Below are positions 44,057 to 63,239 of a stretch of DNA of 64,000 nucleotides, one piece after another. The stretch spans positions 1 through 64,000 of the forward strand of contig DAOVET010000001.1 in NCBI GenBank assembly GCA_030668825.1. Direction: 5' to 3'. Made by a program: the position numbers and the translations under genes. The DNA is from Candidatus Heimdallarchaeota archaeon (GTDB lineage Archaea; Asgardarchaeota; Heimdallarchaeia; Heimdallarchaeales; Heimdallarchaeaceae). The notes beneath the pieces were generated by a model. That model had not been told where the DNA came from, searched no databases, and saw only the letters and a list, made by a program, of their open reading frames with translations. How positions within the stretch are numbered: the first letter of the stretch is position 1; each line of letters begins with the position of its first letter.

Positions 44057-44057
44057 T

Positions 44058-45056: not shown

Positions 45057-45150
45057 TTTCCTCTTTCCTTGTAATAATATTCATATTCTATAGATTTAAG
45101 CTTTCTGTGGCAAAAAAAGAGTGGAGGAGTGAAAATGACTCACCATTTCT

Positions 45151-45573: not shown

Positions 45574-45628
45574 TCTTTTTAAACAAATAAGTTATAAAAA
45601 ATTATTATCTTAATATAAAGAGGATTTG

Positions 45629-46225
45629 TTAGTCTTTTTGAAAACGATTGTAAATAGGCTTCAAAAGAGGAACAAATAAGAGAAGAGAAAGCATCATAAA
45701 AGAAGTTGAATCTGGATTTGGACGCAGTTCAAACAAAACCAACCATGCCGAACTATGGTCTTCATCTGTCGCTAGTGGTATGTTTTCTGTAAAAGTTAAT
45801 AGGCAACGAACATTACAAGTCCCCCAATTTGAATTATAATTAATAGTTAGGTCTTGTGTAATATAGCTACCAACAGTTGTGAATTCCTCGCTATAGGTTT
45901 TTGTTTCAATGTTACCAATTGTATAAATATCTATAGTTAAACCTATGTTTTTTATTCCTTGTACATTGCTTCCAAGCGCTCCAAGTTCTATAATGATTTT
46001 ACCTTCCGCTTTCTGATTATGATTCAGAGAAACATCATCAAAAGAAGGCTTAATTAAAATCTCTGTCCCACGAGTGGTTGTTACAGTATGTACTTCAAAG
46101 GTAAGCGCAGAAGGATATGAAACAGCTGAGAAAATAAATAGTAAGCCAATGAACAGAATTTTAATCTTTTTATTCAAATGTAATTCACCGCAAATACAAA
46201 GGAAGTAAATATATTTAAAGTGCAC
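45629..46225 (-). CDS. Secreted protein with a C-terminal membrane anchor
   Basis: Signal-peptide-like KKIKILFIGLLFIFSAVS and a C-terminal hydrophobic helix with basic tail; the real start is probably downstream of the called one. Confidence 0.6.
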   Translation of the reverse strand: MHFKYIYFLCICGELHLNKKIKILFIGLLFIFSAVSYPSALTFEVHTVTTTRGTEILIKPSFDDVSLNHNQKAEGKIIIELGALGSNVQGIKNIGLTIDIYTIGNIETKTYSEEFTTVGSYITQDLTINYNSNWGTCNVRCLLTFTENIPLATDEDHSSAWLVLFELRPNPDSTSFMMLSLLLFVPLLKPIYNRFQKD

Positions 46226-46242
46226 TATAAGTTACTTTACAT

Positions 46243-46476
46243 ATGCGAATGAGTAACGAAGGTAAAATCATTTTCAATCACATGGGAATAGAATATAGAG
46301 AATGCATAATAGAACAATGTATGTGGAACGTCAATTGGGAAGAACTACGATTGGCAGAAGAGACAGCGGGAAGACCTCTACCAAAAAAATTCGAGGGAAG
46401 GGTGTGTAATTGTGTTCCAGAGAATCCTATAGGTATTTTAGAAGCTTCTAAAGTACGATGCAATCCAGAAGGTTAA
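46243..46476 (+). CDS. Small Cys-rich hypothetical protein
   Basis: 77 aa with C-x4-C...CNC...C. Confidence 0.45.
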   Translation: MRMSNEGKIIFNHMGIEYRECIIEQCMWNVNWEELRLAEETAGRPLPKKFEGRVCNCVPENPIGILEASKVRCNPEG

Positions 46477-46514
46477 AAAGGTTAATTATCAACTGTAGAA
46501 TTCATTTTCTATCT

Positions 46515-46751
46515 TTATATAAAATCTTCTAATCCTAATTGTTTCTTCGGTCTCATAAAATCCTTCAGTTCCTTATCCTTTTGGTCAATGAACCATTGTT
46601 TGATGAGCTTGGTTTCAGGATCAACAACAGACTTAGGTATCCAGATAGGATTATCAACAAAACCATCAATAAGAGCTAGAAAGGCTTTCTCTGTCTCAAT
46701 ATCTACTTTACCTAACTTAAAGTCTGAATACTTACTCCGATTCTCGTCCAT
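46515..46751 (-). CDS. Small virus-like hypothetical protein
   Basis: ETEKAFL...IWIPKS pattern recalls small beta-barrel phage proteins. Confidence 0.5.
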   Translation of the reverse strand: MDENRSKYSDFKLGKVDIETEKAFLALIDGFVDNPIWIPKSVVDPETKLIKQWFIDQKDKELKDFMRPKKQLGLEDFI

Positions 46752-46905
46752 ATTAAAAAGAAAGAGGAGATTTCAGTTTATAATGATAGAGCAAAGATGT
46801 ATATTAAGTTGGATATTTTTTCTCCTTTTTGCATTTACTTGAATAATCTAAACAAATAACTTTATTGTATTCAATTTCCAATATCTTAGATATTATGGGA
46901 AATTT

Positions 46906-47559
46906 CTATCTCTTGTTTGAATTTTTCTTTCGGATTGCGAAAATCACAGTACATATCAACAAAATGGATAATAGTGGTAATGCAAAAGAAACATTTGTTT
47001 GTTCAGTAGGATAATAGTCAAATTCAATGTAAGTGACATTCATATTACCTGAATTCATCTTTATTAAAGCAGGTAGTTCTAGAGTAGTTATGTTATTTAC
47101 AAAATAACCTGTATTTATTGGTCTCCAGAGAGTATAATTTCCATCCTCGGGTTGAGATAAACCCGATTGATTAATATAAAATTTCACGTAACTATGTTCA
47201 ACAGTGATTCCTGGAGCATAAGAATAGTGCATTATTGTTGCATGAGCTATCATCAATGGATCAATTACCAGTGTTTGGTTACTAAGGGTTGCATTTATGA
47301 AGACTTTAGGATAAAAATCTGATAACTCAACTACTGTTTGATTTTCCTCAGCTCTATTCAGAATTTCTACAGTAACACCGATACCAAATAGAGTAGAATT
47401 TGGTTTATTATATAGATTAGTAATTACAGCAATTTCACTAACTTCTGATACTCTTGAAGCAATAACAGGAAGATTACCAGAAACTGATAAATTGATTGAA
47501 GAAACACATATGTATGCAATTAATATTAAAGTAAGATATTTTCCTAGTGGTTTAATCAT
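46906..47559 (-). CDS. Secreted, C-terminally anchored surface protein
   Basis: Signal peptide, many N-x-S/T sequons, C-terminal TM followed by RKK. Confidence 0.65.
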   Translation of the reverse strand: MIKPLGKYLTLILIAYICVSSINLSVSGNLPVIASRVSEVSEIAVITNLYNKPNSTLFGIGVTVEILNRAEENQTVVELSDFYPKVFINATLSNQTLVIDPLMIAHATIMHYSYAPGITVEHSYVKFYINQSGLSQPEDGNYTLWRPINTGYFVNNITTLELPALIKMNSGNMNVTYIEFDYYPTEQTNVSFALPLLSILLICTVIFAIRKKNSNKR

Positions 47560-47628
47560 ACTTTTTCCTCCATTTAATCTTTTTAGCAGACGTACCTAAT
47601 TAAAGTTAAGTACGAGGTTTAATAATTC

Positions 47629-48825
47629 TTACCTTGCTAGTCTCCCCTCCGTATATGCCTTTCCAAATGCTAAATAAGCATCTATATATCCATATCCAAA
47701 TTTTTGATCAAAAGTGCTTCGCGAACTAGCATAGTATAAGATATCCAAAACTTTCTGGAGAGAAGGGTCAGTAGAAGAACCTATTCCATTGTGATAAGCT
47801 GTTATTATCAAAGCAATTGTTGCAGCCAAATAGGGAGTACTAAAACTGGTTCCAGCTCCATATTTCCAAATACCTCTATAGATTCCAAGTGATTGATCAT
47901 AATATGCATCCGTTAATATAGGTATACCATTCCCTGGTTCTACCCAGTTTACAATATGATTACCTGTAGTATAAGATTTATACCAAGATGAAAACCAGGA
48001 TTTATGATGTATCCATGAGTCGCTTCGATCTTCATGATCTATTGAACCAACAGCATACCACTCAGAGTAATATGATTGATACATGTAATTATAACCCCAA
48101 CGGTAATTAAGATAATTGTAATAGTTACCAGCTGCTGTAAGTAACATCACATTTTTAGTAATCAAACTTGCCCATTTTTGATGGATTGTTGTATCTTCAG
48201 TAAAATCAATTCTTGAGACCCAAGACCATGAAACTATATCGATATCCTTTGATGCTTGATTATCATCTATCCATTCCCAAATTTCATATTGTCCATAAGT
48301 AAATCCATAGGGATCATATAACTCTTCCTCTTCATTTTCCACATATAAATCGATAAAAATGACTTTTACATCTCTGGCGATGGAAGCTAGTACAGATATA
48401 ACTGCAAATCCATGTCCATGAAACACTTGATTGTCTAGAAATGGATCATTAGGATTAGTAATGAATTTTATTTCATTATAACATCTGAAATCGTTTGTTA
48501 AGAACCCAACAATATCCACATTCGCTTCAGGATTTTGTTCTAAAGCTTTCCATTCCAAATCAGTTAAACCATCATCAATTATTACGACAGTAACATAATC
48601 ATCTATAGTAACTCCATGCTCATACACAATTACATCTGTTTCTGTATACTTATATGCTGCATCTTGAAGATTTCCAACTTTTACTGCTGGATTTATAACA
48701 GGATCACCAATTGCTCCGCATTTTAACCAATCTAACATTTTGAGTTGATTATTACACATATCAGGTAAAGGTGCCAATCCAATACATACTATCAAGCAAA
48801 AGGAAAGAATTTTTTCATATTTCAT
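47629..48825 (-). CDS. Secreted subtilisin-like (S8) serine protease
   Basis: Catalytic triad VVIIDDG / HGHGFAV / GTSFSTP, oxyanion AAGN, FGYGYID; signal peptide. Confidence 0.88.
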   Translation of the reverse strand: MKYEKILSFCLIVCIGLAPLPDMCNNQLKMLDWLKCGAIGDPVINPAVKVGNLQDAAYKYTETDVIVYEHGVTIDDYVTVVIIDDGLTDLEWKALEQNPEANVDIVGFLTNDFRCYNEIKFITNPNDPFLDNQVFHGHGFAVISVLASIARDVKVIFIDLYVENEEEELYDPYGFTYGQYEIWEWIDDNQASKDIDIVSWSWVSRIDFTEDTTIHQKWASLITKNVMLLTAAGNYYNYLNYRWGYNYMYQSYYSEWYAVGSIDHEDRSDSWIHHKSWFSSWYKSYTTGNHIVNWVEPGNGIPILTDAYYDQSLGIYRGIWKYGAGTSFSTPYLAATIALIITAYHNGIGSSTDPSLQKVLDILYYASSRSTFDQKFGYGYIDAYLAFGKAYTEGRLAR

Positions 48826-49044
48826 TATTCTTGACTCCTAGATAGTAATTTTATCAAATTCTAGATCCTCTTGTTTCCTTAAAAACCTGTCTTATTTTCA
48901 GATGCTGCAAATGTGTCGTAAATTTCCAATATTCTTTCTTTCATTTCTTTCAATGTTGTTTTTACCACCTTTATAAATCAAACTCCTGATAATAGTTCAC
49001 CTACACTCCTTGTTTTACATCCCACTGAAAGTAAAAAAGGATAG

Positions 49045-49599
49045 TTGGTGAAAGAAGTGGGTAAGAACATGTATACAAGATTAAAAGAAGAAGTAAAGAA
49101 ATATCTCTCCTCTTTTAAAAGGTTTCAAGAAGAACTACAATCATTTAAAGAATTTAGAAGAAGTATTGATTTACCATCAGAGATGACAATAGATCTATCG
49201 GAAACTAAGGACCAGATGGAAGCTATTAGAAGATATGAAGCAAGATTACAGAAAGGAAAAGATGATCCAACTTGGTTTACTCTCACTAAGATGGTTACTG
49301 ATGTTTTTTTCGAGATGAAAAAAGAGTTTGAGGTATTCATGCAAGAACCTCAGTTTCTAGAAGGTAGAAAGTGTAAAAATCTAGTTGATTTAACTACTTA
49401 TGTAGTTGGAGAATTACAAGAACTAGAAGTTAAGCTTTACTCCAAACACATGGATGAAGTAGATTGTTCTGTTTGTAACCAAAGTCATCTTATTCTTGAT
49501 GAGAATAGAGCAGAACAGACATGTAAAAACTGTGGCATAGTAATTAGAGATAAGATATCCGAAGAGGAAATTAGTCTTAAATCACAACCTTTTTTCTGA
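49045..49599 (+). CDS. Coiled-coil protein with a C-terminal TFIIB-type zinc ribbon
   Basis: CSVCNQSHLILDENRAEQTCKNCGIVI matches the TFB Zn-ribbon pattern; likely start ATG 49069. Confidence 0.65.
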   Translation: MVKEVGKNMYTRLKEEVKKYLSSFKRFQEELQSFKEFRRSIDLPSEMTIDLSETKDQMEAIRRYEARLQKGKDDPTWFTLTKMVTDVFFEMKKEFEVFMQEPQFLEGRKCKNLVDLTTYVVGELQELEVKLYSKHMDEVDCSVCNQSHLILDENRAEQTCKNCGIVIRDKISEEEISLKSQPFF

Positions 49600-49663
49600 T
49601 AAAAACTTAAAAAGGATAAGGATAAATTCTACTAATCTTAATTATTACTTAAATAACGAATAT

Positions 49664-50242
49664 TTGGATGGAAAAATAATGACTATTGATGGTTATGATT
49701 TACAGGATGGTTTTACTAGAAATTATCATTCCTTTCAATTGACAGGAGAGCATACAAATACTACTTGGACACATAGAATCCTCGGTTACTTTGATAGACT
49801 GGGGAGAATGCTAGGATACGAAGTACAATTTGAAAAAGAAATATATGATTTAACTTGGTGGGATTATTCAATTAATCAAGAAAAAGGGAAGATTATTCTC
49901 CATGTCGAACATGAAAATTCAACAAATAAGAATAAGATAATCGAAGAAACTTTAGAATACAAAATTCTAGATTCTGAAGCAAAAATAGCTCTTGCTATCT
50001 GTTATCCTAATAATTCTCAAGATTTTGATGAAATTAAACTTTGGATTAAAAAGAATGTTAAAAAACGAATGAAAGCAGAAGAAGTAGCCATCATAGTAGA
50101 TGGTTGTTGTTATGGAGAAGAACCATATCATTTTGCAGTTCACATGATTACGAAAAAGAAATCAGAACTATACCTTTATGACAAAATAACAGTAAATGAA
50201 TATCATTGCTTAGAGTATAAGACAGAAGAAAATTACGCGTGA
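49664..50242 (+). CDS. Putative PD-(D/E)XK-fold nuclease
   Basis: YDLTWWD...LHVEHEN pattern (D...ExE variant). Confidence 0.55.
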   Translation: MDGKIMTIDGYDLQDGFTRNYHSFQLTGEHTNTTWTHRILGYFDRLGRMLGYEVQFEKEIYDLTWWDYSINQEKGKIILHVEHENSTNKNKIIEETLEYKILDSEAKIALAICYPNNSQDFDEIKLWIKKNVKKRMKAEEVAIIVDGCCYGEEPYHFAVHMITKKKSELYLYDKITVNEYHCLEYKTEENYA

Positions 50243-50271
50243 TGGACGTATCGTGTAAAATTGTGAATTAT

Positions 50272-50499
50272 TCATTGATTTTGTATTCTCGCTTTTATTT
50301 TTTTTGTTTCTTCTTCAGATAAAATCTTATCTCTCTTCCCTAAACTACATTCTTTGCATGTTGTTGCTAGATTGTCTAGTGAATGTTCTTTTACTATTGA
50401 CCAAGGTATAATATGGTCAACTTGTAATTCAACTTCTGGAGCTGAACGACCACAAATTATACAAGAAAAATTATCTCGTTGTAGAACCTCAAATCTCAA
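50272..50499 (-). CDS. HNH endonuclease domain, possibly the C-terminus of an interrupted TM-HNH fusion
   Basis: LRFEVLQRDNFSCIICG...VDHIIP...NLATTCKECS; in frame with the upstream ORF across one TAA. Confidence 0.8.
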   Translation of the reverse strand: MRFEVLQRDNFSCIICGRSAPEVELQVDHIIPWSIVKEHSLDNLATTCKECSLGKRDKILSEEETKKIKARIQNQ

Positions 50500-50502
50500 A
50501 CT

Positions 50503-51126
50503 TTAAGGAATTGAACTTTCATCATCTTTTTTGATTTTTGCTGTAAATACAAAACCCCCTAAACATACAAAGAAAATTCCAAATGTTAAGAGAAAAGCAC
50601 CAATAACCATCCACCACCATTCTAAGTCAAAAACTAATATCCATAATCCAACAATAGAAGAATATAGTAAGTTCAAGTAAGTACGTCCTCTGAATATCAA
50701 TCTGCAAAACAATTCCTTTCCATTCTTTGGAATACTATAACCTAGAATATATTTCCTGATTTCTTCATTATCAAATCCTTTTATTTGTAATCGAACAAAA
50801 TGCAGAAGCACGTATTCTTTCATCTCTTCGTACATAGTTGTAAGATTAAAATAATTGCACCCAATAACAAAGATTCCAATAAAAATTACAAAACCAATCC
50901 GTAGATAAGGTTCATCATTTTGTGTTGAAGGAAAATCGATCTGAATGTAACTTGAACCAAAATACGCTCCTAATGAAATTATTGCTAACAATGATGGGAA
51001 TACAGAAATAAATCTAAACTTTTGAGAATTTAGGAATTTAATTCTATTAAGAATCTGTTCATGAAGAGTCAGAAGTTGTTCTTGTGGAATATCATCGTTT
51101 TCTTTCTTATCATCTTTTTTTGTCAT
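50503..51126 (-). CDS. 4-TM membrane protein
   Basis: Two pairs of hydrophobic helices. Confidence 0.65.
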   Translation of the reverse strand: MTKKDDKKENDDIPQEQLLTLHEQILNRIKFLNSQKFRFISVFPSLLAIISLGAYFGSSYIQIDFPSTQNDEPYLRIGFVIFIGIFVIGCNYFNLTTMYEEMKEYVLLHFVRLQIKGFDNEEIRKYILGYSIPKNGKELFCRLIFRGRTYLNLLYSSIVGLWILVFDLEWWWMVIGAFLLTFGIFFVCLGGFVFTAKIKKDDESSIP

Positions 51127-51338
51127 TTTCTTTCATCGTAAACAGATAAATAGCACATATTTAAATCCCGATGTTTTTTTCACTAAATATAATAGATGTA
51201 AGAATTTTAATTTTTTTTCAATTTTCGGTATGTTTCTGATACTATACACTCCAATAATTCGTCAAAAACTACTTTTTATACTCAAATTTAAATAGAATAA
51301 AAAATAATTAAGATTGCTTTGAGTAATTCGTATATAAG

Positions 51339-51884
51339 TTGGGAAAAATCATGAATAACACTTCAAATAACAAAAGTGATGAACAACTACAATATGAATT
51401 AAAAAAACTAATAGACAAGTATAATAAATTCAAGAGAGACAAAGGTCGTTCAGGTTTAAATAAATTGAATGAAGCAGAAGTAAGAAAAGACTTCATTGAT
51501 CCTTTCTTTGCAATTCTTGGGTGGAATATTCATGATTCCTCAGAGTATGGTACTGAAGAACATATCAAAGGTGTAGGAAGAGCAGATATCATATTAAGAG
51601 ATTCCAAGCTTATTTCCACAAAACCTCAAAGTCTTGTTTATGTTGAAGCAAAACGGTTTGGTATTCTTCATTCTAAACCACTTGATACTAAACAAGTTGA
51701 TCTTTTGGGAAAATTTGTTCCTGATTGGACAGAAGAAGATAGACAAGCAACTAATTATGCAATGGCAAAAAACATAAGATGGGCAAGAATTAATGGAATA
51801 TATCCTATTGTTGTCAGTCAAGAAATCAACAATCAGATAATGGGTAAAATAACATTTGAAATTATTGCACATTCAGATATTTAA
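51339..51884 (+). pseudogene. Truncated restriction-enzyme N-terminal nuclease domain (HsdR_N/type IIG-like)
   Basis: NEAEVRKDFIDPFFAILGW, GRADIIL, YVEAKR, QATNYA; similarity stops after IRWA and no methyltransferase or helicase domain follows. Confidence 0.65.
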
Positions 51885-51910
51885 TATTTTGTTAATTAGG
51901 TTCAGAAAAT

Positions 51911-54256
51911 TTATAATAAATTAGCTAAATCATTTAATACCTCAAATTCTGAAAAATCGGTTCCAATTCTCTCCACTAATCTATATATCATTTCACTACT
52001 TGTGCTTTTTAATCTAATTTTTTCTCCAGCAATTTCTTCTAAAACTTCTTCTAAAGAGCCCAATTTCCAAATAAATATATTATCTTCTAAAAGGAGTTTG
52101 GTAAAATCATTTAGAATTTGTTCATTTGCTAAAACATTTTCTAGATTCTTATCAAGAAACTTAGATAATTCTTCTTGTTCTTTGAATTCATTTAGCATTT
52201 TTCCAAGAACAGAATCCTTGAAAGGTAAATATTTCTTTTTTGTATCCCCTTTAGTTTTGTTTGCAATTGGAAAAGCTGCATCTAGATCTACTACTATTAA
52301 GGCTTCAACCTCAAGTTTTTTTATTAGTTTCCAAACAATTGGAAGGTTTCTAATTCCATGTAATTCAATTATATCCCAACCATTTGATTCTAATTTGAAA
52401 TTCTCAGGAAAATTAGTCCCCAGTTCTTCAACGAATAATTTATCGTTTGGTCCTTCTACAATCATAACTTTGTTAGAAAAGAGTAGTTTATTTACACTGT
52501 CGATTCTTTTTAGGAATTTACTTGCTTTACCTTCAGATGACTTTCTTTTTGATTCTTCTTCTTTGTCATCAATCTCAGATATGTTAAATCTTATTAGTTT
52601 TCCATATACACCTTTCCAGATTTGTGTTCTGAGAAAATCGTTAATGAAATATGGGGAATGAGTAATCAAAATATAAGTAGGAATAATCTCTTCATTTAGA
52701 TAGTTCGATATTGTGTTAATCACTTTTCTTTGTAGTTGTGGATGTAATGCTCTTGCTGGCTCATCAATTATGATTGTTTTATCTCCTCTTTCAAATAAAG
52801 AAGTTAGAATCATTAAAGTTTCATAAGCTCCACTTGGTGCTTCATGCATCTCTATTGGTACATTCATGCTATCTGTAAATTGAATTAAGGGAGCTCTTTC
52901 TATAACATTTTCTTCTATATCAGCCCATTTAACATTTTTTTGAATATCTTCATTATATCCTGTTGTTGATGTTGTTCTAATAACATCCCCAATTATAAGT
53001 TTAGGATAATTTTCTGTTACTCTAATTGGTTCTTCTTTTACATAAACATCAAATTTCATTTTGAAAAGATTCTCAAATTCTTTCTTTAAATCATAAAATC
53101 TCTTTCGTTCATTCTGTATAGAAGAATTTTTCCATCTATAAAGTGTTTCAGATAATTGGTTTATGGTGAAATAGCTGATACCCGAATAATCTTCAGCAAT
53201 AAGACCTCTATGTTCAGGTATAATAATTGTTCTGTTTTTAAAGAGTTTTTTAATAATGTTGCAAAAAATAATATGAGAACCTTCATTTTCAATCGGATAA
53301 AACGCTTTAATTTTTTGAAATACTTCATATGAAAGATTTTTAATTTCACCCTTTCCATACTTTAGATTCAGATTTGGTAAAGTTATCTTATAGGAAATAT
53401 CTGCATCAAATGTACTTTCAAGCATTTTGTTTACAACATTAGGAGAAATTTTAGCATCATCTTTTCTCAAAAAAATATGCATTGCTTTTAGTAAACTTAG
53501 ATTAACATCACTGTTCTTCTCATTACTTAAACCATCATAATCTATTAGATAGCATCTAGATTTCTGAAAAACAGATATTGAAGGTATCAATCTAGTAACA
53601 TCTGCTTTAAGATTAACTTTTATTTTCTTAAATAGTTGACCGATATTAGAATGCATATCATTTGATAAAAGAATCCTCTTGAATTCTAATAGTCTATTAC
53701 CTTTCAAAAAACCAAGTTTAAAAGTAAAATCAGACTTTTCAAGGGTTTCTTTAAATTTCTCAAAGTTATTTTTATCCAGTTTTGAAAAAAGTTGATTTCT
53801 TTTTTCTTGAATTTTCAGCACTGGGGTTTGTTTAGTCTCAGGCAATTTAAGATTTAAAATATTTTTATTAAATTCATATAGATTATTGATTTCGTTATCA
53901 TCAATATCAAATATAATTTCTCTGATGAACATTTCCTTGAAATCATTAAATCTGTTTGATTCTTCCATCTCTTCTATTTCTCTATAGATACTCACGCATA
54001 ATATTGAACCAAGTAGTTCCTGCTCAAATTTTGATAGTTCAAGTTCTATGTTTAGGTTAATATCTGGATCATATTTACCTAAATCTACAGAGTTTTTTTC
54101 TAAACACAAACCCACCAGTTTAATAGCTCTTACTACATTGGTTTTTCCAGATCCATTAGGTCCAACTATGAAGTTGTTTCCGTTGTTAAAAGTGATTTCT
54201 TGGGTATCTTCTCCATAAGACAGGAAATTCCTGAGTTGGAGTGATGTAATTTTCAT
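51911..54256 (-). CDS. OLD-family ABC ATPase-TOPRIM nuclease
   Basis: VGPNGSGKTN, APSGA, IIIDEP, ITHSP; TOPRIM motifs IVEGPND and VDLD. Confidence 0.88.
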   Translation of the reverse strand: MKITSLQLRNFLSYGEDTQEITFNNGNNFIVGPNGSGKTNVVRAIKLVGLCLEKNSVDLGKYDPDINLNIELELSKFEQELLGSILCVSIYREIEEMEESNRFNDFKEMFIREIIFDIDDNEINNLYEFNKNILNLKLPETKQTPVLKIQEKRNQLFSKLDKNNFEKFKETLEKSDFTFKLGFLKGNRLLEFKRILLSNDMHSNIGQLFKKIKVNLKADVTRLIPSISVFQKSRCYLIDYDGLSNEKNSDVNLSLLKAMHIFLRKDDAKISPNVVNKMLESTFDADISYKITLPNLNLKYGKGEIKNLSYEVFQKIKAFYPIENEGSHIIFCNIIKKLFKNRTIIIPEHRGLIAEDYSGISYFTINQLSETLYRWKNSSIQNERKRFYDLKKEFENLFKMKFDVYVKEEPIRVTENYPKLIIGDVIRTTSTTGYNEDIQKNVKWADIEENVIERAPLIQFTDSMNVPIEMHEAPSGAYETLMILTSLFERGDKTIIIDEPARALHPQLQRKVINTISNYLNEEIIPTYILITHSPYFINDFLRTQIWKGVYGKLIRFNISEIDDKEEESKRKSSEGKASKFLKRIDSVNKLLFSNKVMIVEGPNDKLFVEELGTNFPENFKLESNGWDIIELHGIRNLPIVWKLIKKLEVEALIVVDLDAAFPIANKTKGDTKKKYLPFKDSVLGKMLNEFKEQEELSKFLDKNLENVLANEQILNDFTKLLLEDNIFIWKLGSLEEVLEEIAGEKIRLKSTSSEMIYRLVERIGTDFSEFEVLNDLANLL

Positions 54257-54477
54257 AAATATTTTAGTCTCAACTTAATTTATAAATCATACGATTGAAT
54301 GTTCATTTAAAATTCTAATCAATCAGATTCTATGATTGGTTGGTTTAAAGAAAGAATCTATCTCCACTTTATTGATTTCCAAATTTTTAATATCAATTTC
54401 TCTGCTAAACATAAATAGTACTACTACGAAGATCAATATACAGTAAGAATCAAATAAAAAGTGTAAATTCTGATGTT

Positions 54478-54849
54478 CTAATACTGTCTTTTTCTATTAA
54501 GAAAGTTTGCTTCTACTTCTGCTTCTATCTCTTCTCTTATCTTCTCCTCCATTCTTTCAGCCCATTTATTGAAGAGATACTTAAATGGTAACACTTCTAT
54601 TAAGAATAATAGTAAGAATATTCCAGAACCTATTACTCCCAATATTCTCAATAATATCATCCATATTGCTTCCCCCAAAACTGTCTTCTCAAAATAGAAT
54701 GCTGCTGCTGTTCCGCAAATAAACACTACTGCTCCTATGAACGCACCTAATCTATCTTCCCAGCTAAATACTTTTTCTCTCTCTCTTCTTATCCTTTCTG
54801 CGTATCTCTTTAATTCAGTATTTTTTATTATCATATAAACCCAAACCAT
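54478..54849 (-). CDS. 2-TM small membrane protein
   Basis: Two hydrophobic helices flanked by charged segments. Confidence 0.55.
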   Translation of the reverse strand: MVWVYMIIKNTELKRYAERIRREREKVFSWEDRLGAFIGAVVFICGTAAAFYFEKTVLGEAIWMILLRILGVIGSGIFLLLFLIEVLPFKYLFNKWAERMEEKIREEIEAEVEANFLNRKRQY

Positions 54850-54951
54850 ATCTTTTTTTCATCTTTCTACTCATCTCTGCAGGATGTGTTTCTTCTATTA
54901 TTATCACCATCCACATGACGAAAAATACTGTCAAATATCCCATTATCTCTA

Positions 54952-55266
54952 TCAACTTATCCCCTCCACTAACAGCTCCCCTATTGTCCTCTCTGTCATC
55001 TCAAAGAAGCTCATTATCCCCTCACTCTCATGGATCAGTTCATGTAGTTTCTTTAGTTTCACTTCCCTTCCCAGATTATCCTCGAAAGCTATCTCATAAC
55101 TCCATGCTCTCTTCTCCCTCTCTTCTATCATCCACTCCTTCTGTTCTTCAAAGAAGTTCTTCAGGAAGAATTGTAATCCATATACTGTCGTTATCTTCTG
55201 TCTTGTTAGTTCTATCCTTCCCTCTTTCCCTTCTACATAGATTACAAAGACCATATTCCAGTTCAT
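54952..55266 (-). CDS. Hypothetical protein
   Basis: 104-aa ORF on the purine-rich strand. Confidence 0.5.
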   Translation of the reverse strand: MNWNMVFVIYVEGKEGRIELTRQKITTVYGLQFFLKNFFEEQKEWMIEEREKRAWSYEIAFEDNLGREVKLKKLHELIHESEGIMSFFEMTERTIGELLVEGIS

Positions 55267-55665
55267 TTTGCTCTATTTTGCTTATCAGAACTTTGGTTTA
55301 TAAAGTAGGGAAAGTTTTTTTCTCGAGTTTTTAAATCAATTTACAGATTAGTGGTTGAAGCTGGCACAAACCCTTGAAATTCATATATCTAAAAAATATA
55401 ACTCATCACACTTTAGCTGGCTTCGACCCACTCTTTTCTTCTCTCAATCTCCTTCATCAGTTACTTATGGAAGCAAAATTAAAAATCTGGGTTTTAGATT
55501 GATAAAATAGAGAAAATTAGTGAATTTTTCAACCTTCCTCTCAAACACCTGAAAAAAATAGACTTCTAACTTATCTCACATTTAGTATTTCTATATCCTT
55601 ATTTTATTTCGATAGAGGAAAATCAAAAATGCAAAAATCAAACAAACTATTCTTGTTCAAGTATA

Positions 55666-57333
55666 CTATCTTCTTCTTTTAGAACTAAATCGGGAATAAC
55701 CAAATACAATTAGTGGGATTAGTACAATTAAAGAAAGAAACGAGTAGTAAATATTATTATTCCTATAAACTGGAGGTTCAGAAAGAGGATAAAGATCTTG
55801 TGCATTTGCAAATCCATCAATATAATAGCTACCAACTACCACAAAATAGTCTGACCAATAATTTCCTTCCTCATTTTCTTCATCATACCAGAGATTATCT
55901 CCATCATCTCTCGCTTGGGAAGTACCGTAATACTGGTTGTTATTGTAAAAGGAATTATGGTGAACAAGATTGTTGACTGAATCTTCATCTAAAAATACTC
56001 CCCAAAAATAATTATTAGTTAAAGTATTGTAAGTAATAGAGATATTTGATGAGTTTTCAAGCACTAACCCATGATTATTATTGCTTAAAATATTATTTTC
56101 GATTAATGAATTACTTGTTTGCACAAGTAGAATCCCTTGTTTTTTATTGAAACTACAGTTATTGTTCATGATGGTTATTCTATCACTAAATTTAACATGT
56201 ATTCCTATTAATGTTTGATCCAAGACTTGATTTTTTATCATGAATTCAGAGCAATTGGAAATAAATAGCTGACCATAGATTGGTTTTGTTATTTTCAAAT
56301 TATTTTGGTTTGTAAAATAACCGTACTCTTTTCCATTTATCATATTGTTGTACACTGTGTAAGTATGATAATCTGCTGGATTTAATTCGTAAAAATAATA
56401 GTCACACTCTGTTAATGTATTCCCAATAAATTCAGAAAATTCTGAATCCCTTACATATATACCATTAGACTCGGTAGTAATTTCATTATTTATAACAGAG
56501 ACATTTCCACTATATACTACTGTTAATCCTATTCCTCCTCCAAAACAGTAATTGTCTGTTACTACAGAATCATTTGAATGAGATAATCGAATGTTAAACT
56601 GAACATTATTGAAACAAGAGTTATTTGCAACTAAAGCTGCTCTAGATGTATGAAGATATATCCCTCCTAAATAAGAATTGTTATGAAGAGAATTGCTAAC
56701 AACGGTAGCGAAGAAACTGCTACCAAGAAGTAATCCTCCTTTGAAATTATCTGAAATATTATTACCATAGATATAACTAGAATTACAATTATTAAGGAAA
56801 ATACCTCCTTCATTACTCTTTGTACATGTATTATTTACGATTCTAATATTTGGTGAAAATATTACATGGATACCATAGCGTAAACCTTCATTACATGTAT
56901 TTTTGATGAGCTCTATACCTTCTGCTTTACTGATCTCCATCCCAGATTTTTGATAATTCTGACACAAATTTTCCTTAATTTTGATACTGTTAGGTGCTAC
57001 ATTTAGAATATAGATACTGTAGTTATCACCATCCAGAAAACAATTTTGGATCAGGAAGCATTTGGTAGTATAAGATATTGATATACACGCTTCTTCGGTT
57101 GTAGTAATGTTAAGATTCTCTATACGGTAAGGATCTACAGCTGTTCCTTCTCCTGGTAAGCTGTAAAGAGAGATATTGGTATCAGATTGTATGACAATAG
57201 GTATCGAGATTATATATGAATTAGAATTTAAATTTCCACTATCTGTGGTAGCTGTAGTAATTTCTATACTCCAACTTTTCATTAGAATTAAACTGAAACA
57301 CACCACTACTAGTAACCCTTTCTGATATTTCAT
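55666..57333 (-). CDS. Cell-surface parallel beta-helix (NosD/CASH) protein
   Basis: Signal peptide, GEGTAVDPYRIENL, repeated I.NN.C..N..GI.L units, GNYWSDY, DLYPL, C-terminal TM plus basic tail. Confidence 0.85.
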   Translation of the reverse strand: MKYQKGLLVVVCFSLILMKSWSIEITTATTDSGNLNSNSYIISIPIVIQSDTNISLYSLPGEGTAVDPYRIENLNITTTEEACISISYTTKCFLIQNCFLDGDNYSIYILNVAPNSIKIKENLCQNYQKSGMEISKAEGIELIKNTCNEGLRYGIHVIFSPNIRIVNNTCTKSNEGGIFLNNCNSSYIYGNNISDNFKGGLLLGSSFFATVVSNSLHNNSYLGGIYLHTSRAALVANNSCFNNVQFNIRLSHSNDSVVTDNYCFGGGIGLTVVYSGNVSVINNEITTESNGIYVRDSEFSEFIGNTLTECDYYFYELNPADYHTYTVYNNMINGKEYGYFTNQNNLKITKPIYGQLFISNCSEFMIKNQVLDQTLIGIHVKFSDRITIMNNNCSFNKKQGILLVQTSNSLIENNILSNNNHGLVLENSSNISITYNTLTNNYFWGVFLDEDSVNNLVHHNSFYNNNQYYGTSQARDDGDNLWYDEENEEGNYWSDYFVVVGSYYIDGFANAQDLYPLSEPPVYRNNNIYYSFLSLIVLIPLIVFGYSRFSSKRRR

Positions 57334-57387
57334 TTTATCACTCTTGTTTTATCTTCTAAATCTCACTTATTCACAATTTATTCTGAA

Positions 57388-59109
57388 TTATCTCAATTTC
57401 TTTTCTTGATTATTGAATCTTTTTTTCCTAATTGTTATTTGGAAATAACCATAAATCATCAGAGGAATAATAACAGCAAACGAGAAAAAAGCATAGTAAA
57501 TATTCTTATTTCTATAAACTGGGTGTTCAGAAAGAGGATAAGGATCTACAACACCAGCAAAACCGTCTATACTGTAGTTTCCAACTCCTGAATAGTCTTC
57601 CCAGTAGTTCCCCTCCTCTTTTTTCTCATCATACCAGAGATTATCTCCATCATCTTTTGCTTGGGATGTACCATAGAAGTTGTTGTTTATGAAAACGTTA
57701 TGGTGTATTGAGTTATTAGCAGAACCACCACCTAATACCACTCCCCATAATCCGCTATTTGTTATCACATTGTATGTGATCTCATTGTATGAGGATTGCT
57801 CTAATAAGATTCCATACAACCCATTATATTCTGAAGTGTTGTTAATTATATTCACTCGTTCAGATTTAAATAAATAGACTCCACTTCTGCTATTAAACTT
57901 GAAAACTGATTTTGAAATAGATATGTCCTCGCAATAATATAGACTTACTCCTGTAGAAAAACTACTTATCAACTGGTTCTTAATTTTGATGTTATTACAA
58001 TTTACAAGATGTAACTGATTAAAGATTGCTTCTGAAAGAGTAAGGTCATTTTCATCAACAAAATACCCGAAAAGTTTGTCATTAACGTAATTGGAAGTTA
58101 CGTAGTACTTCCTGAAATCTTCCACAGTTGATTCGTATATTCTAAACCCACAATCATAAAGCATATTATTGCTGATTATTGAGTATTCCGCATCCTTTAG
58201 ATATATACCTGTATTACTCCCTGCACAGATATTGTCAGAAACAGTCACGTTACCGCCTAAAACAACAATAATCCCATATATTTCACCAGAACAAATGTTT
58301 CTTGTTACTAAAGAGAAATTTGAGCTGTGGATATCTAAATTAGGTTGCCGATTATTATAACAGATATTATCAGAAACTGTCGATGTATAACACCTAAGTA
58401 ATCTTATCCCTCCATGTAAATCATTTAAGTAACAGCGATTATGCATAATAAGAGAATTCGTACAATCATCCAACACAATCCCTCCTTTTTTATTCTCATA
58501 ACAAGTATTGTTTTTAACTATGCTTTCAGAACTTTTATCTATAAACATCCCGACCCAGCTGTTATCAAAACAAGTATTAAGCTCGATTTGACAATTTGGT
58601 GAATCTTTGATATGTATACCAAAATAGCTATTTGAGTAACAGGTGTTATTAATTATCAGTGAGTTTGATGAATTATAAATACGAATTCCTCGTATAGAAT
58701 TACCAATACAAATGTTGTTTTCAATTTTTGCAGTTTCATTTTTAACTGATTCTATTACAATACCATTTACAGATGCGTTTACAAAACAATTTTGAATTAG
58801 AAAGTGTTTAGTTGTATTGTAAACATAAATTCCCCTTTCTTTTGTTGTAGTTATATTGAGATTTTCAATTATGAAAGGATTTACAGCTGTTCCATCACCT
58901 AGAAATCCATAATCTGTGAAATTAGAGTCATTTGTAATAACGATTGGTAATGAGTCAATATAGGAAAGAAAAGGTTGATAAGCTTCTTTAGAAGGAAATC
59001 TATAACATGTATTCTGAAATTCAGTTTCTTTAGATTCTACTGAGGTAAACATTGACAGTAACAAAATACAAAAAATTGTAACTGTTACATTCTTTCTCAT
59101 ATAACCCAT
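57388..59109 (-). CDS. Cell-surface parallel beta-helix (NosD/CASH) protein, tandem paralogue
   Basis: Same architecture; shares YGTSQAxDDGDNLWYDE..EEGNYW and YPLSE.PVYRN with the neighbour. Confidence 0.85.
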   Translation of the reverse strand: MGYMRKNVTVTIFCILLLSMFTSVESKETEFQNTCYRFPSKEAYQPFLSYIDSLPIVITNDSNFTDYGFLGDGTAVNPFIIENLNITTTKERGIYVYNTTKHFLIQNCFVNASVNGIVIESVKNETAKIENNICIGNSIRGIRIYNSSNSLIINNTCYSNSYFGIHIKDSPNCQIELNTCFDNSWVGMFIDKSSESIVKNNTCYENKKGGIVLDDCTNSLIMHNRCYLNDLHGGIRLLRCYTSTVSDNICYNNRQPNLDIHSSNFSLVTRNICSGEIYGIIVVLGGNVTVSDNICAGSNTGIYLKDAEYSIISNNMLYDCGFRIYESTVEDFRKYYVTSNYVNDKLFGYFVDENDLTLSEAIFNQLHLVNCNNIKIKNQLISSFSTGVSLYYCEDISISKSVFKFNSRSGVYLFKSERVNIINNTSEYNGLYGILLEQSSYNEITYNVITNSGLWGVVLGGGSANNSIHHNVFINNNFYGTSQAKDDGDNLWYDEKKEEGNYWEDYSGVGNYSIDGFAGVVDPYPLSEHPVYRNKNIYYAFFSFAVIIPLMIYGYFQITIRKKRFNNQEKKLR

Positions 59110-59273
59110 GCAAAATCCTCTTCACTCAAAATAAGGCAGATATTAATTTTTAAAGATTTTGACTGCATTTTAATTAATTTCCTTTTTCGAATACTATTAT
59201 AAGTGTTTAAGATATATTATTCTAGATAAAAAGACGGTTCAAACATATAGAAGACTTATCTAAAGGTGAAAGA

Positions 59274-60725
59274 TTGAAAACCAAATTCAAAGTGGCTATA
59301 ATTGCCGGAGCAATAATAGGGCTCGTAAGTATAACTATCCCTACTGTTTTTTTTCTAATACAACCTCCAGAGATAACCAATGGTAATAATGACAATAAGA
59401 GTATTGATAATGTTATTTACCCAAATCCGCTTTTTTACCGAGGAACAATTTCAGATATGATGCTTGAAAGTGACGACAGAGTACAGTTTATTGTAGGTAG
59501 CTATAATGCCACCTATGTCACCTATCCTCATTCACCTGCTTATATAATTTTAGATCACAAAAATCAAACGTGTACATATAAAGAGATGTTCCCAGGAATT
59601 ACTTCAGGAAATATGCATCAACTAAAAATAGGTTTAGGTCCAAATAATGAGTCAATTGCTTATAATTTTTTTACCAATCCTTTCGGTTATCTAGTGGCAT
59701 ACTTGTACAAAACAAATACTCTTGGGAGATGGATATTCTATCCTGCACTTTCTGATAAACCCATGCCTTACGGTGGTTTTAATAGGAGAAGTGTGTATAA
59801 CTGGAATTTTATGCCTTCAGGAAAAATAAATCTCGCTTTCTTATATCAAGGAACTTATAATACACCTGCAATCTATAATGAAACAACAGATAGTTTTTTC
59901 TTCTTGAGCGATGTTTTTGAGGAAATTAAAGATCAAGTAATTCTTAACAGGTATGGAGACTTTGCAGTTGTAGATTCAAATATTTTCTACTTTTGGTCAG
60001 AATATATAAATGAGTACAACTTTCATCCTTATCTAGCTATTAAATGGCAGGGAGAAGGATGGCAACTAACAAGAATAGGAAATGAATCAGAAACATATAT
60101 GCCCATCAGTATTATTCCTCAGAAAAATGTAGTGAATATTTTTTATCATGATTCTGGTAAAAGCAGTTTGAATAGTAGACTCTATCACACCCAGATTTAT
60201 AATTCTACTAGTAATACTACAACACTTCTACACCAATTTGATGGGAGAACTGTTTTTCGTCAAGATTCTGTATGTGCTCTCTCTCAAAATGAGTATGTGT
60301 TCTTGTATACTAAAGGGTCGTATGTACTAAATGCACAAAGAGATCTGTTTATGGGTTATTATGATGGTAAAGAATTCTATGAATTTATGCTTACAGATAC
60401 TCCACAACTTCTTGAACATCGAGCACATTGTGAATTAGGGGAGAATTACATTCATTTGGCTTGGGAAACTAGTATAGACAAAGGAACTGGAATCTATGAC
60501 CCAATGCAGACTAATCTTTTCTATAATAGAATATCCTTAAAGGAAATAAGACTGTCAAAAGAAACTGTTATAATACCATCAATGATAACCATAAAGAATG
60601 AAAACCATAGAACAAAGCTCTTTAACGATTGGACTTTCTTAAAACTTACTATCTATATTGCTCTGTCCATCAAAATCCTTTTTTTTCCAGTAAAATTCTT
60701 GTGTGAGATACAGGGATTCTTATGA
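59274..60725 (+). CDS. Membrane-anchored extracellular beta-rich protein
   Basis: N-terminal TM, beta-propeller-like composition, C-terminal hydrophobic stretch. Confidence 0.6.
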   Translation: MKTKFKVAIIAGAIIGLVSITIPTVFFLIQPPEITNGNNDNKSIDNVIYPNPLFYRGTISDMMLESDDRVQFIVGSYNATYVTYPHSPAYIILDHKNQTCTYKEMFPGITSGNMHQLKIGLGPNNESIAYNFFTNPFGYLVAYLYKTNTLGRWIFYPALSDKPMPYGGFNRRSVYNWNFMPSGKINLAFLYQGTYNTPAIYNETTDSFFFLSDVFEEIKDQVILNRYGDFAVVDSNIFYFWSEYINEYNFHPYLAIKWQGEGWQLTRIGNESETYMPISIIPQKNVVNIFYHDSGKSSLNSRLYHTQIYNSTSNTTTLLHQFDGRTVFRQDSVCALSQNEYVFLYTKGSYVLNAQRDLFMGYYDGKEFYEFMLTDTPQLLEHRAHCELGENYIHLAWETSIDKGTGIYDPMQTNLFYNRISLKEIRLSKETVIIPSMITIKNENHRTKLFNDWTFLKLTIYIALSIKILFFPVKFLCEIQGFL

Positions 60726-62417
60726 AATTATTATTGTTTTCATTAAATTGGTTTGAACTAAGAAATATTCAGGGTCTGTATTGTCGTTATAACAAGTGAG
60801 CACAAAATTAATTGTAGAATCTACAATAAATGAAGTGTTGAGAAAACCTCTAATTTGATAATTACCTGATTTTTGGAGCACAAAAGAGTAACCTCGTGAT
60901 CTATTTAAGATTAAGTATTCCAATTGCGGTTCTTCTGCAATGATTTCAATATAACTAAATAATCTAAATGTGTCAAATAACAAATTATTGTCACTATCTA
61001 TAACTATAGAATCGACTCTAATAATATCTGCACGCATAAAATCTGGAACATTGTGGTAAATATATTGGAAATTAATTTCCATTACAAAAGTAGAATTTTC
61101 ATATAATTCTACTTCTTTAATCGTTATTGATGAATTACTAGACCAATTCATACCATAAGCATCAGCAATTTCAAAGTTGTTGACAGTCCAACCATCACAA
61201 ACTTCTTCTCCTTGGATGATCAAATTACTAGGAAGCCCTAGAACTAAAATTATTAGAATAAAGGAGATTGCTTTTTCAATTTTTATCTTTTTGGAATAAT
61301 TAATTGGAACGATTTTATCCACTTCTTTAACAATCTTATCCTCTTCTTCAGTCTGATCAGTTTTTTTTCTCATTTTTAGTTTATGTATTAGAAATAGCAA
61401 ACTCGAAGATAGTATCAATGGAATTATAAATAATAAAAGAACCATAATAAAACCTGCTAGAAATTCGCTTGAAATTGCAGAAATGTCCAAATTGAGATAT
61501 GATTCTAGAATAAGGGATAAGAGTAAATTGTGAAATAACAAATCGCTCCAGAAAAATATTGTAAACAAGGTTATAGCTATAAAAAATATACTAGCTATCG
61601 AAAGTGAAATAATTTTAATTTTTCGTGATTTTGCTATTAAAGGTTCCTTAATCTTGCTTTGTAGTTTTGAAAGTATTAAAAAGATCCCACTTGTCACAAA
61701 AATATAAGCTAAGTAGATACCCAAAGGACCAACTTTTCCAGTAATAGGTAAAGTAAAAAGACAAGCAGAACCGAACATTCCAACTAAGCTAAAAGTATAA
61801 ATCCCATAGAATGGAATAAATGCAATTGTTTGATCAACTAGTTCTTCTTTACTATTTGTCCCCTTATGTTCACTTGAGCTCCTTGTTTTTTTCGTAGAAA
61901 TAATTAAGATCACCCCTTTTAGAAACAACAATAAAGGAGTAATAAATATTAAGAACAAGAAAAGAACATTCAAATTATTAGTATAACTATTTGCTCCACC
62001 AAGAAACATTATAGCTCCCCCTGCCCCATGAGACGAGTATTGTATGTGAGCTATTAGTCTTACTAGCTCATCTATATGATATATTGCGAAAAAAACACTA
62101 AATAATCCCACTTTTCTTGGGTAGAGTCTAGAGAGAAGGAAACCAGTGAGTACAAGAATTGCACTTAATATATAATTGGCTAAAGTGTTTTTTTCATTTG
62201 AAATATATGCGTCTATCTCGACCCAATTATATTCTATTGTTCCATTAGCTGAAGATATATCCTGAATTTGAATCGTTTGATCATATAGTGTTAACTTTGA
62301 TACTCTTATAGTTGCAATAAGTATAAAACCAACAATTATCAAAACAGAGAGTATTAAAACAATATAATCCCAACATTTATTCTTGGAAATGTAAAAATGC
62401 ATTCTTGTTTTCCTCAT
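60720..62417 (-). CDS. Polytopic membrane protein with a C-terminal extracellular domain
   Basis: About 9-10 hydrophobic segments. Confidence 0.65.
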   Translation of the reverse strand: MRKTRMHFYISKNKCWDYIVLILSVLIIVGFILIATIRVSKLTLYDQTIQIQDISSANGTIEYNWVEIDAYISNEKNTLANYILSAILVLTGFLLSRLYPRKVGLFSVFFAIYHIDELVRLIAHIQYSSHGAGGAIMFLGGANSYTNNLNVLFLFLIFITPLLLFLKGVILIISTKKTRSSSEHKGTNSKEELVDQTIAFIPFYGIYTFSLVGMFGSACLFTLPITGKVGPLGIYLAYIFVTSGIFLILSKLQSKIKEPLIAKSRKIKIISLSIASIFFIAITLFTIFFWSDLLFHNLLLSLILESYLNLDISAISSEFLAGFIMVLLLFIIPLILSSSLLFLIHKLKMRKKTDQTEEEDKIVKEVDKIVPINYSKKIKIEKAISFILIILVLGLPSNLIIQGEEVCDGWTVNNFEIADAYGMNWSSNSSITIKEVELYENSTFVMEINFQYIYHNVPDFMRADIIRVDSIVIDSDNNLLFDTFRLFSYIEIIAEEPQLEYLILNRSRGYSFVLQKSGNYQIRGFLNTSFIVDSTINFVLTCYNDNTDPEYFLVQTNLMKTIIIS

Positions 62418-62585
62418 TCTTGATTAGATGTTATAAGTACAAACGCGCTCTTAAAAATTCTTTGGAACATTGCTATAGCGCAAAACATAGAATCCATTTT
62501 ATCATTCTCGCCCTTCAAATTATCATAAAACTAGTGGAGTAGCAATGATATATGAAATTCTATCTTTTTACAAGTAATATAAATT

Positions 62586-62712
62586 GACACCGGTGGACAG
62601 GGGATGTTTACCTATCTCCGTCCCAAATACTACTCTTGACATCCCTGTTATCATCTGCGGTAACAAATTTGACCTTAACGAAGCTCGTACTCTTGATAAA
62701 GATACTATTTAA
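62586..62712 (+). pseudogene. Fragment of a different Rab-like GTPase (G3 and G4 pieces)
   Basis: 62586-62636 reads DTGGQGMFTYLRPKYYS; 62638-62712 in another frame reads DIPVIICGNKFDLNEARTLDKDTI*. Confidence 0.75.
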
Positions 62713-62725
62713 ATTATATTCGTCT

Positions 62726-63055
62726 CAAGAAGTTTTCAGACAAATCAGAAGTAAATATTTCTTTGGAAGCAAAGGTGCTTTAGCTATTTGTGATGCCTCT
62801 AATTCTGAATCTTTTAAGAATATCCCCTCGTGGGTTGAATCTTTTAAAAAGGAAGTGGGAGATAAGCCTATCATTTTTCTAGCAAATAAATGTGATTTGA
62901 AGGATCAACAAGTCACTGAGGATGACATGAAACAATTGGTTAAGGATTACAGTAACACTGAATATCTGTATTCCTCTGCAAAAGATGGAACAAATGCTGA
63001 AAAAGCTTTCATCAACTTAACCAGACTTATGGTTGCTGAAGAAGATATAGTATAG
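62726..63055 (+). pseudogene. Displaced 3' half of the Rab-like GTPase gene
   Basis: QEVFRQIRSKYFFGSKGALAICD...MVAEEDIV aligns without gaps to aa 67-175 of 43529-44056 (about 84/109 identical by hand count); no G1/G2 upstream. Confidence 0.9.
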
Positions 63056-63239
63056 TTATTTGAATAATTCTCTTAATCCGTTTGAGCTTCTTTCTTTATA
63101 AGGTTCAAAGCAAGAGTGATTTCCCAAAAAAACCTAATTCTTATAGTTTATCCATAAATTTCTGAAAATCACTAATCTAAGAAACCTTTTTATTATTGAA
63201 GGAGAGTTTTATTTTTGAGAATCTAAAAGGCGAACAACA

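Follow-up and report, generated by a model that had tools for sequence, protein, structure and literature searches.

The window, by which we mean the whole analysed stretch of 64,000 nucleotides, carries a short relic of a Ras-like GTPase gene at the right border of an inserted island. Judged by its protein and DNA matches, the relic is the remnant of a second Ras-like GTPase (termed GTP-B, 195 aa), a paralogue which differs from the local Ras-like GTPase (termed GTP-A) into whose gene the island is inserted. It is a pseudogene piece which is now without coding function. We consider it probable, at about 60%, that the foreign GTP-B half of a sibling element that targets GTP-B arrived at the right-hand end of the GTP-A island, where a microhomology served to join it to the displaced GTP-A half, in which case the relic would be its dead remnant.

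In the following, 'cassette' denotes the foreign half, from G3 to the stop codon, that is carried in by an island. The window's own genome (G000, 2.76 Mb) was compared to genomes from the same genus, 25 of which were covered by the DNA search. The genome assemblies used are fragmented MAGs, and the GTP-B locus of G000 itself is incomplete. The features are as follows.

42148-43404, minus strand: TnpB gene (OrfB_IS605 and TNB domain), between a Memo-like gene and GTP-A
43529-44056, plus strand: resident intact GTP-A, with a native 5' part (43529-43714) and a foreign half from the G3 Asp codon (43715-44056)
44057-62585, no strand assigned: inserted island of about 18.5 kb; the same site is without an island in G012:C163
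44058-45573, minus strand: marker module of the island family, consisting of a 332-aa protein (44058-45056) and a 140-aa ORF (45151-45573)
62586-62735, plus strand: the whole relic, covering GTP-B residues 74-155, between the island and the displaced GTP-A half
62586-62633, plus strand: relic segment 1, GTP-B residues 74-89 (G3 DTGGQ and switch II), opening at the Asp codon
62634-62708, plus strand: relic segment 2, GTP-B residues ~121-146 (beta5 and G4 NKFD), out of frame
62709-62735, plus strand: relic segment 3, GTP-B residues ~147-155 (LNYIRLKKF), again in the frame of segment 1
62725-62735, plus strand: 11-nt microhomology TCAAGAAGTTT, the fusion point, matching residues 152-155 of GTP-B cassettes and the G3 region of GTP-A (G-QEVF)
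62725-63055, plus strand: displaced native 3' half of GTP-A, residues 67-175 and stop

The GTP-A locus and its island

The first 186 nt of resident GTP-A are 94.1% identical to the native genes of G012 and G013 at the nucleotide level, while the remainder reaches only 76-78%. The change from native to foreign sequence is abrupt and occurs at the G3 Asp codon (43715). The displaced half, which reads SQEVFRQ...EEDIV from about 62726 and has its stop at 63055, is 94.0% and 92.4% identical to the orthologues in G012:C163 and G013:C63 in nucleotides (94.5% and 92.7% in amino acids), and it shares 77% aa identity with the 3' half of resident GTP-A. The Pfam Ras profile matches the resident 175-aa protein at 6.5e-37 and the displaced half at 6.1e-19. 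In G012:C163 the GTP-A site is empty, the Memo-like gene, the GTPase gene and the gene for a solute-binding protein being contiguous. The identity switch, the displaced native half and this empty site together indicate that about 18.5 kb were inserted at G3 along with a foreign G3-to-stop half. By these identities, the foreign half keeps resident GTP-A whole, and the native half has been pushed 18.5 kb downstream.

Island genes recognised by Pfam code for an OLD-type nuclease, an S8 peptidase, two NosD beta-helix proteins and a TFIIB zinc ribbon. In G013 the counterpart of the 140-aa ORF is a 520-aa protein, of which the ORF covers the C-terminal part, so that the window copy is truncated. The marker module has a counterpart with 90.9% nucleotide identity in G034:C127, where it adjoins the GTP-A gene of that genome. 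The displaced GTP-A half of G034 (G034:C143) opens with CTGG directly followed by GATATTGGTGGACAAGAAG; its G3 is intact and the relic is absent. G034 has the left end in common with the window island, and its right junction is canonical.

Several additional observations were made at this locus. The resident GTP-A 3' half in G034 (locus L080, G034:C127, 10835-11176) is a mosaic, being of cassette type at G3 and at the 3' end and of native type in the middle, which suggests gene conversion between resident and displaced halves. The TnpB/Cas12f-like gene at 42148-43404 is not found at that place in the sister genomes and represents an insertion separate from the island; about 20 copies with 54-77% identity are spread across the own genome. 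Within the island, the OLD-family nuclease (ATPase and TOPRIM; 51911-54256, minus strand) adjoins a small protein with a weak match to the type I restriction domain HSDR_N (51339-51884, plus strand), and by these domain matches the two are a possible defence pair. A region of about 400 bp (60579-60986), in which the 483-aa and 565-aa island ORFs converge with their 3' ends, has a second copy at G000:C116:49649-50063 (65% and 88% aa identity), and contig C45 carries a paralogous block of a 104-aa ORF, a NosD protein and a 483-aa ORF. A homologue of the 565-aa ORF in G011:C128 proved uninformative with respect to the relic, as it adjoins housekeeping genes and the homology to the window stops at 62516.

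GTP-A-like sequences elsewhere in the genus show further variants. Two contigs of G012 (L019, G012:C94, and L020, G012:C11; both 1-474) begin within a GTP-A-like gene, at its residue 18. Over the first ~170 nt they hardly differ, past G3 they diverge more and more, and beyond the stop they are unrelated; by this pattern, another population might have two alternative 3' halves, each followed by a different island. In G001:C5 (L014, 8740-8802) the very C-terminal end of the GTP-A half has a 21-aa match (67%) located 1.2 kb 3' of the intact gene, which could be all that remains of an earlier displaced half.

Anatomy of the relic

Translation of 62586-62636 gives DTGGQGMFTYLRPKYYS followed by a stop, and translation of 62638-62712, in a different frame, gives DIPVIICGNKFDLNEARTLDKDTI followed by a stop. 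The original prediction had described these as two pieces derived from a GTPase, with about 30 codons missing between them and a shift of frame. Translations, tblastn and DNA matches all bear this out, and an alignment with five GTP-B genes shows that 95 nt (~32 codons) have been deleted between 62633 and 62634. In the same alignment the first aligned base of the relic lies at the G3 Asp codon and the DNA upstream does not align with GTP-B, in agreement with the predicted start at G3. A second deletion, of only 1 nt, is located near 62708/62709, after which GTP-B homology goes on to 62735 (LNYIRLKKF).

The relic had been proposed to end 13 nt before the displaced half, and this turned out to be wrong: the supposed gap is relic sequence, because GTP-B homology resumes past the 1-nt deletion and overlaps the GTP-A homology, which begins at 62725. 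The overlap amounts to 11 nt, TCAAGAAGTTT, which is present in both parents, namely in the LKKF codons of GTP-B cassettes and in the G3 region of GTP-A (GGT CAA GAA GTT T). The native GATATCGGCGG, which represents the D-I-G-G codons and the first 11 nt of a displaced GTP-A half, is absent at the junction.

G3 and switch II are recognisable in the relic as DTGGQ(G/E)MFTYLRPKYY (62586-62633), which contains the DxxGQ motif, and G4 as CGNKFDL (62656-62676), which contains the NKxD motif. The features of a working GTPase are lacking: the sequence runs through three frames with stops, it has suffered the 95-nt and 1-nt deletions, it is cut at residue 155, ahead of G5, and nothing aligns 5' of G3, where the G1 P-loop and G2 would be found. 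As had been predicted, the relic is clearly unlike the local GTPase (8/16 residues across G3 and switch II). Its neighbours are a 565-aa island ORF on one side and the displaced GTP-A half on the other, so that the native synteny of GTP-B is not found. There is no element body 3' of the relic, which is directly fused to the displaced half, and the 419-aa and 520-aa marker genes are not next to it.

Assignment of the relic to GTP-B

The full-length GTP-B protein of G012:C41 matches the relic with 76% identity over residues 74-94 and 62.5% over residues 123-146. When it was used as tblastn query against the own 2.76-Mb genome, both relic pieces were found jointly with an E value of 2.4e-11. Segment 1 is identical to native GTP-B of G012:C41 in 15 of 17 residues; the native GTP-B sequence reads DTGGQEMFTYLRPKYYA ... 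DIPIVVCGNKFDLNEARSIEKEVM. In the DNA search of the 25 genus genomes, every match to the relic part of the query was a GTP-B gene, with 88-89% identity for 62586-62633 and with 82-85% identity (E 1e-19 to 1e-23) between 62634-62730 and the GTP-B genes of sister genomes. In the own genome the second peptide is matched best by a GTPase on contig C3 (62.5%, E 1.2e-8; next match 3.9e-4), which is a GTP-B remnant; the contig stops within the gene. The C3 remnant is of native type (91% to G012).

The claim of a second, different GTPase is thus upheld at both the protein and the DNA level, and the suggested tblastn search for a donor in host and relatives leads to GTP-B as the donor paralogue group. 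The proposed check against Ras-superfamily profiles gave a mixed result. Ras (PF00071) is the sole Pfam match of the 24-aa peptide, at model positions 105-125, but it stays below the cut-off (E 0.036; 14.1 bits versus 21.6).

Because the peptides are short, with a sub-threshold Pfam match, chance similarity or a MAG assembly chimera had to be considered. We regard this explanation as having next to no probability: it is refuted by the DNA E values, by the collinearity of all three segments with GTP-B and by the recovery of the junction in 4 of 4 runs from four studies. In these runs the relic is covered and its junction is bridged or tiled by contigs with 0-5 differences, and none of them restores the 95-nt or the 1-nt deletion. 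More broadly, 17 of the listed runs have at least half of the sampled words from 62300-63100, and at least 20 rows from 12 studies have some part of this region; runs with this locus stem from cold seeps and sediments. The relic and its junction are not an assembly artefact.

At position 62602 the window has a G (Gln-Gly), while all four runs have an A (Gln-Glu), so that the population sequence encodes the canonical DTGGQE; the G is either a strain variant or a MAG consensus error. Loose contig ends at 62725 or 62726 continue into the intact GTP-A genes that other populations have, and those at 62637 and 62709/62710 lead into an intact cassette-type GTP-B with about 90% identity to the relic (7 differences in 74 nt). 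Metagenome contigs were also scanned for the exact pattern of the GTP-B/GTP-A junction, with no match.

GTP-B loci and the island family

GTP-B is usually flanked by a 288-aa gene upstream and a CBS-domain gene downstream, and this empty arrangement is found in six genomes (G012, G009, G036, G001, G010 and G006). In G013:C101 the order is full GTP-B, a 9-kb island, a partial copy from residue 75 and the CBS-domain gene, and the same occupied pattern is found in G034 (C21, C59) and G018 (C288, C328). The displaced GTP-B halves of G013, G034 and G018 all begin with residue 75, and their identity to native genes is 98%, 87% and 97.5%, while the full GTP-B genes at the occupied loci are only 84-86% identical to native ones. 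The three displaced halves have a common upstream flank and may, and probably do, represent a single event or lineage.

The GTP-A and GTP-B islands are connected by their marker genes. The 332-aa gene beside the GTP-A stop has a homologue with 61% aa identity, and the 140-aa ORF one with 89% aa identity, beside the GTP-B replacement half of G013:C101. The first marker gene (332/419 aa) is also located beside GTP-B in G016:C91 and G004:C72, and beside GTP-A in G034:C127; its 419-aa form combines a double zinc ribbon with a helical part. Judged by the 332/419-aa and 140/520-aa genes, this is one island family with two targets, GTP-A (G000, G034) and GTP-B (G013, G016, G004).

A metagenome scan with a resident GTP-B protein resulted in 14 loci, 12 of which are relatives with at least 68% identity. 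Eight of these 12 are empty sites and four end at or just past the gene; none of the 12 contigs has an island and none is closer to the relic than the genus genomes. Scans of viral contigs with the 419-aa and 520-aa marker proteins as queries revealed no relatives. A search with the 520-aa protein gave only four matches among 8000 scored candidates, one of them from 'Candidatus Heimdallarchaeota archaeon', and no function emerged from these four.

GTP-B fragments with later starts were also encountered: L065 (G016:C91, 9860-10168) starts around residue 91, L064 (G004:C93, 9143-9313) around residue 110 and L055 (G032:C169, 9616-9822) at residue 127. The fragment of G032 is located 172 nt past the full gene and ahead of the CBS-domain gene, a position that would fit the deletion of an island. 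The 288-aa gene (L053, 16510-17373, minus strand, in G013), which has orthologues upstream of every GTP-B, weakly matches the first longin domain of FUZ/MON1/HPS1 (E 0.027), and the two genes may form a pair of a GTPase with its longin partner.

The relic is of cassette type

Resident and native GTP-B halves are distinguishable, and the relic could be compared to both. Over 62634-62735 it matches the resident halves of G013:C101, G034:C21 and G018:C288 in 85, 87 and 88 of 102 nt (83-86%), as opposed to 60-73 of 102 nt (59-72%) for ten native, empty-site, displaced or G032-resident copies; G004:C72 has 75 of 102 nt. In a maximum-likelihood tree the relic clusters with the three resident halves (UFBoot 91 with 150 nt, 86 with 102 nt). 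The LKKF of segment 3 is a signature of resident cassettes, with LHKF in native genes. By its informative segments 2 and 3, the relic is of the foreign GTP-B cassette type and does not derive from the host's own GTP-B.

This bears on the idea, contained in the original prediction, that the relic is debris of the host's other paralogue: an island would once have resided in the host's GTP-B and carried off a piece of that native gene. GTP-B loci do serve as targets, and segment 1 points weakly in this direction, as it is marginally nearer to native GTP-B (42 of 48 nt) than to resident cassettes (37-39 of 48), a difference which is statistically weak. However, the 102 nt of segments 2 and 3 are clearly of cassette type by the counts and bootstrap values given above, and the native-type GTP-B on contig C3 of the own genome reaches only 62.5% with the second peptide. 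This explanation is therefore improbable in our view. The event itself took place at the GTP-A locus, because the relic is joined directly to native GTP-A sequence.

G3 as the point of insertion

In both GTP-A and GTP-B, displaced halves or inserted DNA begin at most ~5 nt from the G3 Asp codon. For GTP-A this applies to the resident gene of G000 and to the displaced half of G034, and it also holds for the relic; for GTP-B, it applies to the displaced halves of G013, G034 and G018. One insertion point is therefore used in independent events, of which clearly independent G3 junctions number only about 3-4, and empty sites are found in relatives. In three genomes scanned with Pfam Ras (97 matches), orphan halves occur for GTP-A and GTP-B only, out of about 31 Ras-family paralogues in each genome; G001 had none. 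A supposed orphan GTPase fragment on contig C16 of the own genome was rejected, as the gene is merely cut by the contig end.

Recurrent targeting of G3, as originally predicted, is supported by the starts close to the Asp codon in two paralogues and in the relic, but some fragments start later (~91, ~110 and 127). We take the latter (G016:C91, G004:C93 and G032:C169) to be secondary truncations. The best reading of these junctions is that islands of this family insert precisely at the G3 codons, between the W and the DxxGQ, of two Ras-like GTPase genes.

Searches of the G000 and G013 islands with Pfam, PHROGs and NCBIfam revealed no integrase or transposase, and PDB profile searches with both marker proteins gave nothing under E 0.1. 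As no recombinase was found in the islands, the term 'site-specific integration' refers to junction anatomy alone. The right-arm sequences 5' of five junctions, compared by eye, have no mutual similarity, and neither a second element body nor a circular form was seen at the locus in the contigs.

It has to be considered that no site-specific mobile element is involved at all. Imported chromosomal DNA might have recombined, homologously or illegitimately, and so have spread the halves, similar to C-terminal displacement in Rhs/CdiA toxins, with the relic as an older orphan. The lack of an integrase would fit, as would the microhomology join of the relic and the mosaic resident half of G034, in which resident and displaced halves have recombined. 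Such recombination should lead to variable points, but the identity switch and the half starts are confined to ~5 nt around one codon in two paralogues, although in GTP-A a 44-nt stretch with a single mismatch lies just 30 nt downstream. We consider this scenario very unlikely.

Our more tentative proposal is that the G3 (DxxGQ) codons are the attachment site of the island family in this Heimdallarchaeota-affiliated genus, served by a recombinase that is not recognised as such, with exchangeable cassettes for each paralogue. Such a system could create chimeric GTPases and drive their diversification.

How the relic may have arisen

According to our preferred reading, each island brings its own G3-to-stop half, so that the target gene would stay whole and the native half would be displaced downstream. 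A sibling element of GTP-B type, or a piece of it, would then have come to the right-hand end of the GTP-A island. This may have happened by integration into the G3 site that the right junction had kept, or by recombination with the resident island through common genes, the other end being joined by microhomology. By either route the cassette, with its A/T-rich left flank, would have come to lie 5' of the displaced half, and it would have been joined to the native sequence at the 11-nt TCAAGAAGTTT. With this join, the native D-I-G-G codons would have been lost together with the remaining cassette and any element body. The deletions of 95 nt and 1 nt in the relic would be later.

Because the left junction is canonical and common to G034, the right junction was presumably canonical at one time and its present state is secondary. 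Between the left flank of the relic and the right end of the island in G034 there is no homology, and the CTGG of G034 is absent. As this flank is unlike the right arm of G034 and lacks CTGG, a single tandem integration followed by one deletion is insufficient as an explanation; the non-homology favours the recombination route or additional deletions. A reciprocal integration with a crossover inside TCAAGAAGTTT was also considered and was rejected, because foreign sequence in the resident gene sets in 11 nt earlier, at the Asp codon.

Alternatively, the element that targeted GTP-A might have been a composite which already bore the GTP-B fragment in its right arm, originating for example from the joint excision of a tandem pair elsewhere, and only the 11-nt join would be local. 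The relic with its A/T-rich left flank does resemble an element junction, a right arm followed by a cassette, in a form like the right junctions at GTP-B, and the island interior is a mosaic, with the 520-aa gene truncated to 140 aa. On the other hand, the G034 island, whose left end is 90.9% identical at the nucleotide level, has a clean right junction without relic, and the join to native sequence would still require a local deletion of 11 nt. A composite element is thus a possible but doubtful source, and we prefer the arrival of a GTP-B cassette at an island already present in GTP-A.

The relic is of value as a dated footprint: it shows that the GTP-A island is no one-off duplication but belongs to a recurrent process aimed at G3, in which related islands reach at least two paralogues. 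It also shows that the cassette of one paralogue can end up at the locus of the other. Small GTPases are among the most expanded eukaryote-like proteins in Asgard archaea. A mobile element that swaps two thirds of a small GTPase would, if confirmed, be a concrete and testable mechanism for their diversification.

Comparison with known systems

Integrated elements have been described for Asgard archaea. Aloposons integrate at tRNA genes, according to the accessible part of their description (PMC8813620). For Atabeyarchaeia, the available portion of the report describes integrated elements and a mobile-like region that carries two Arf-type GTPases as whole-gene cargo (PMC11529989). As far as these parts of the two reports go, the elements resemble the GTPase islands in that they have Asgard hosts, form cargo islands and connect mobile DNA with small GTPases, but neither is described there as inserting into a GTPase gene at G3. 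In the literature searched, no description of a G3-targeted insertion into GTPase genes was found.

Another parallel is provided by islands which integrate within a gene. A Tn7-like element from Heimdallarchaeota is reported to carry a copy, 75% identical, of the methylase gene that it disrupts (10.1101/2025.07.27.667033). Islands and proviruses of the dusA and trmE/SGI1 type are described, in the excerpts available, as integrating within the gene and carrying a replacement for its end. With these and with tRNA-gene islands, the GTPase islands share a single conserved target point, a diverged copy that keeps the gene whole, an old end that is orphaned at the far border and empty sites in relatives. 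They differ in that the target is G3 in the middle of the gene, so that about two thirds of the protein are replaced, in that related islands serve two paralogues with different cassettes and in that no integrase or transposase is recognised.

Serial integration at one att site results in tandem arrays of displaced tRNA-gene fragments. The relic resembles these, as a leftover target fragment between an island and the oldest displaced end indicates more than one event. Here, however, the intermediate fragment stems from the other paralogue and has been fused by a deletion at an 11-nt microhomology.

Rhs and CdiA toxin genes are subject to C-terminal displacement, which leaves 'orphan' modules downstream. 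As at the GTPase loci, a new 3' module replaces the old one at a conserved motif, old modules accumulate downstream, and resident and orphan copies recombine. The GTPases, in contrast, are not toxins, their boundary is a point and not a variable crossover, and the new half comes with many kilobases of island cargo.
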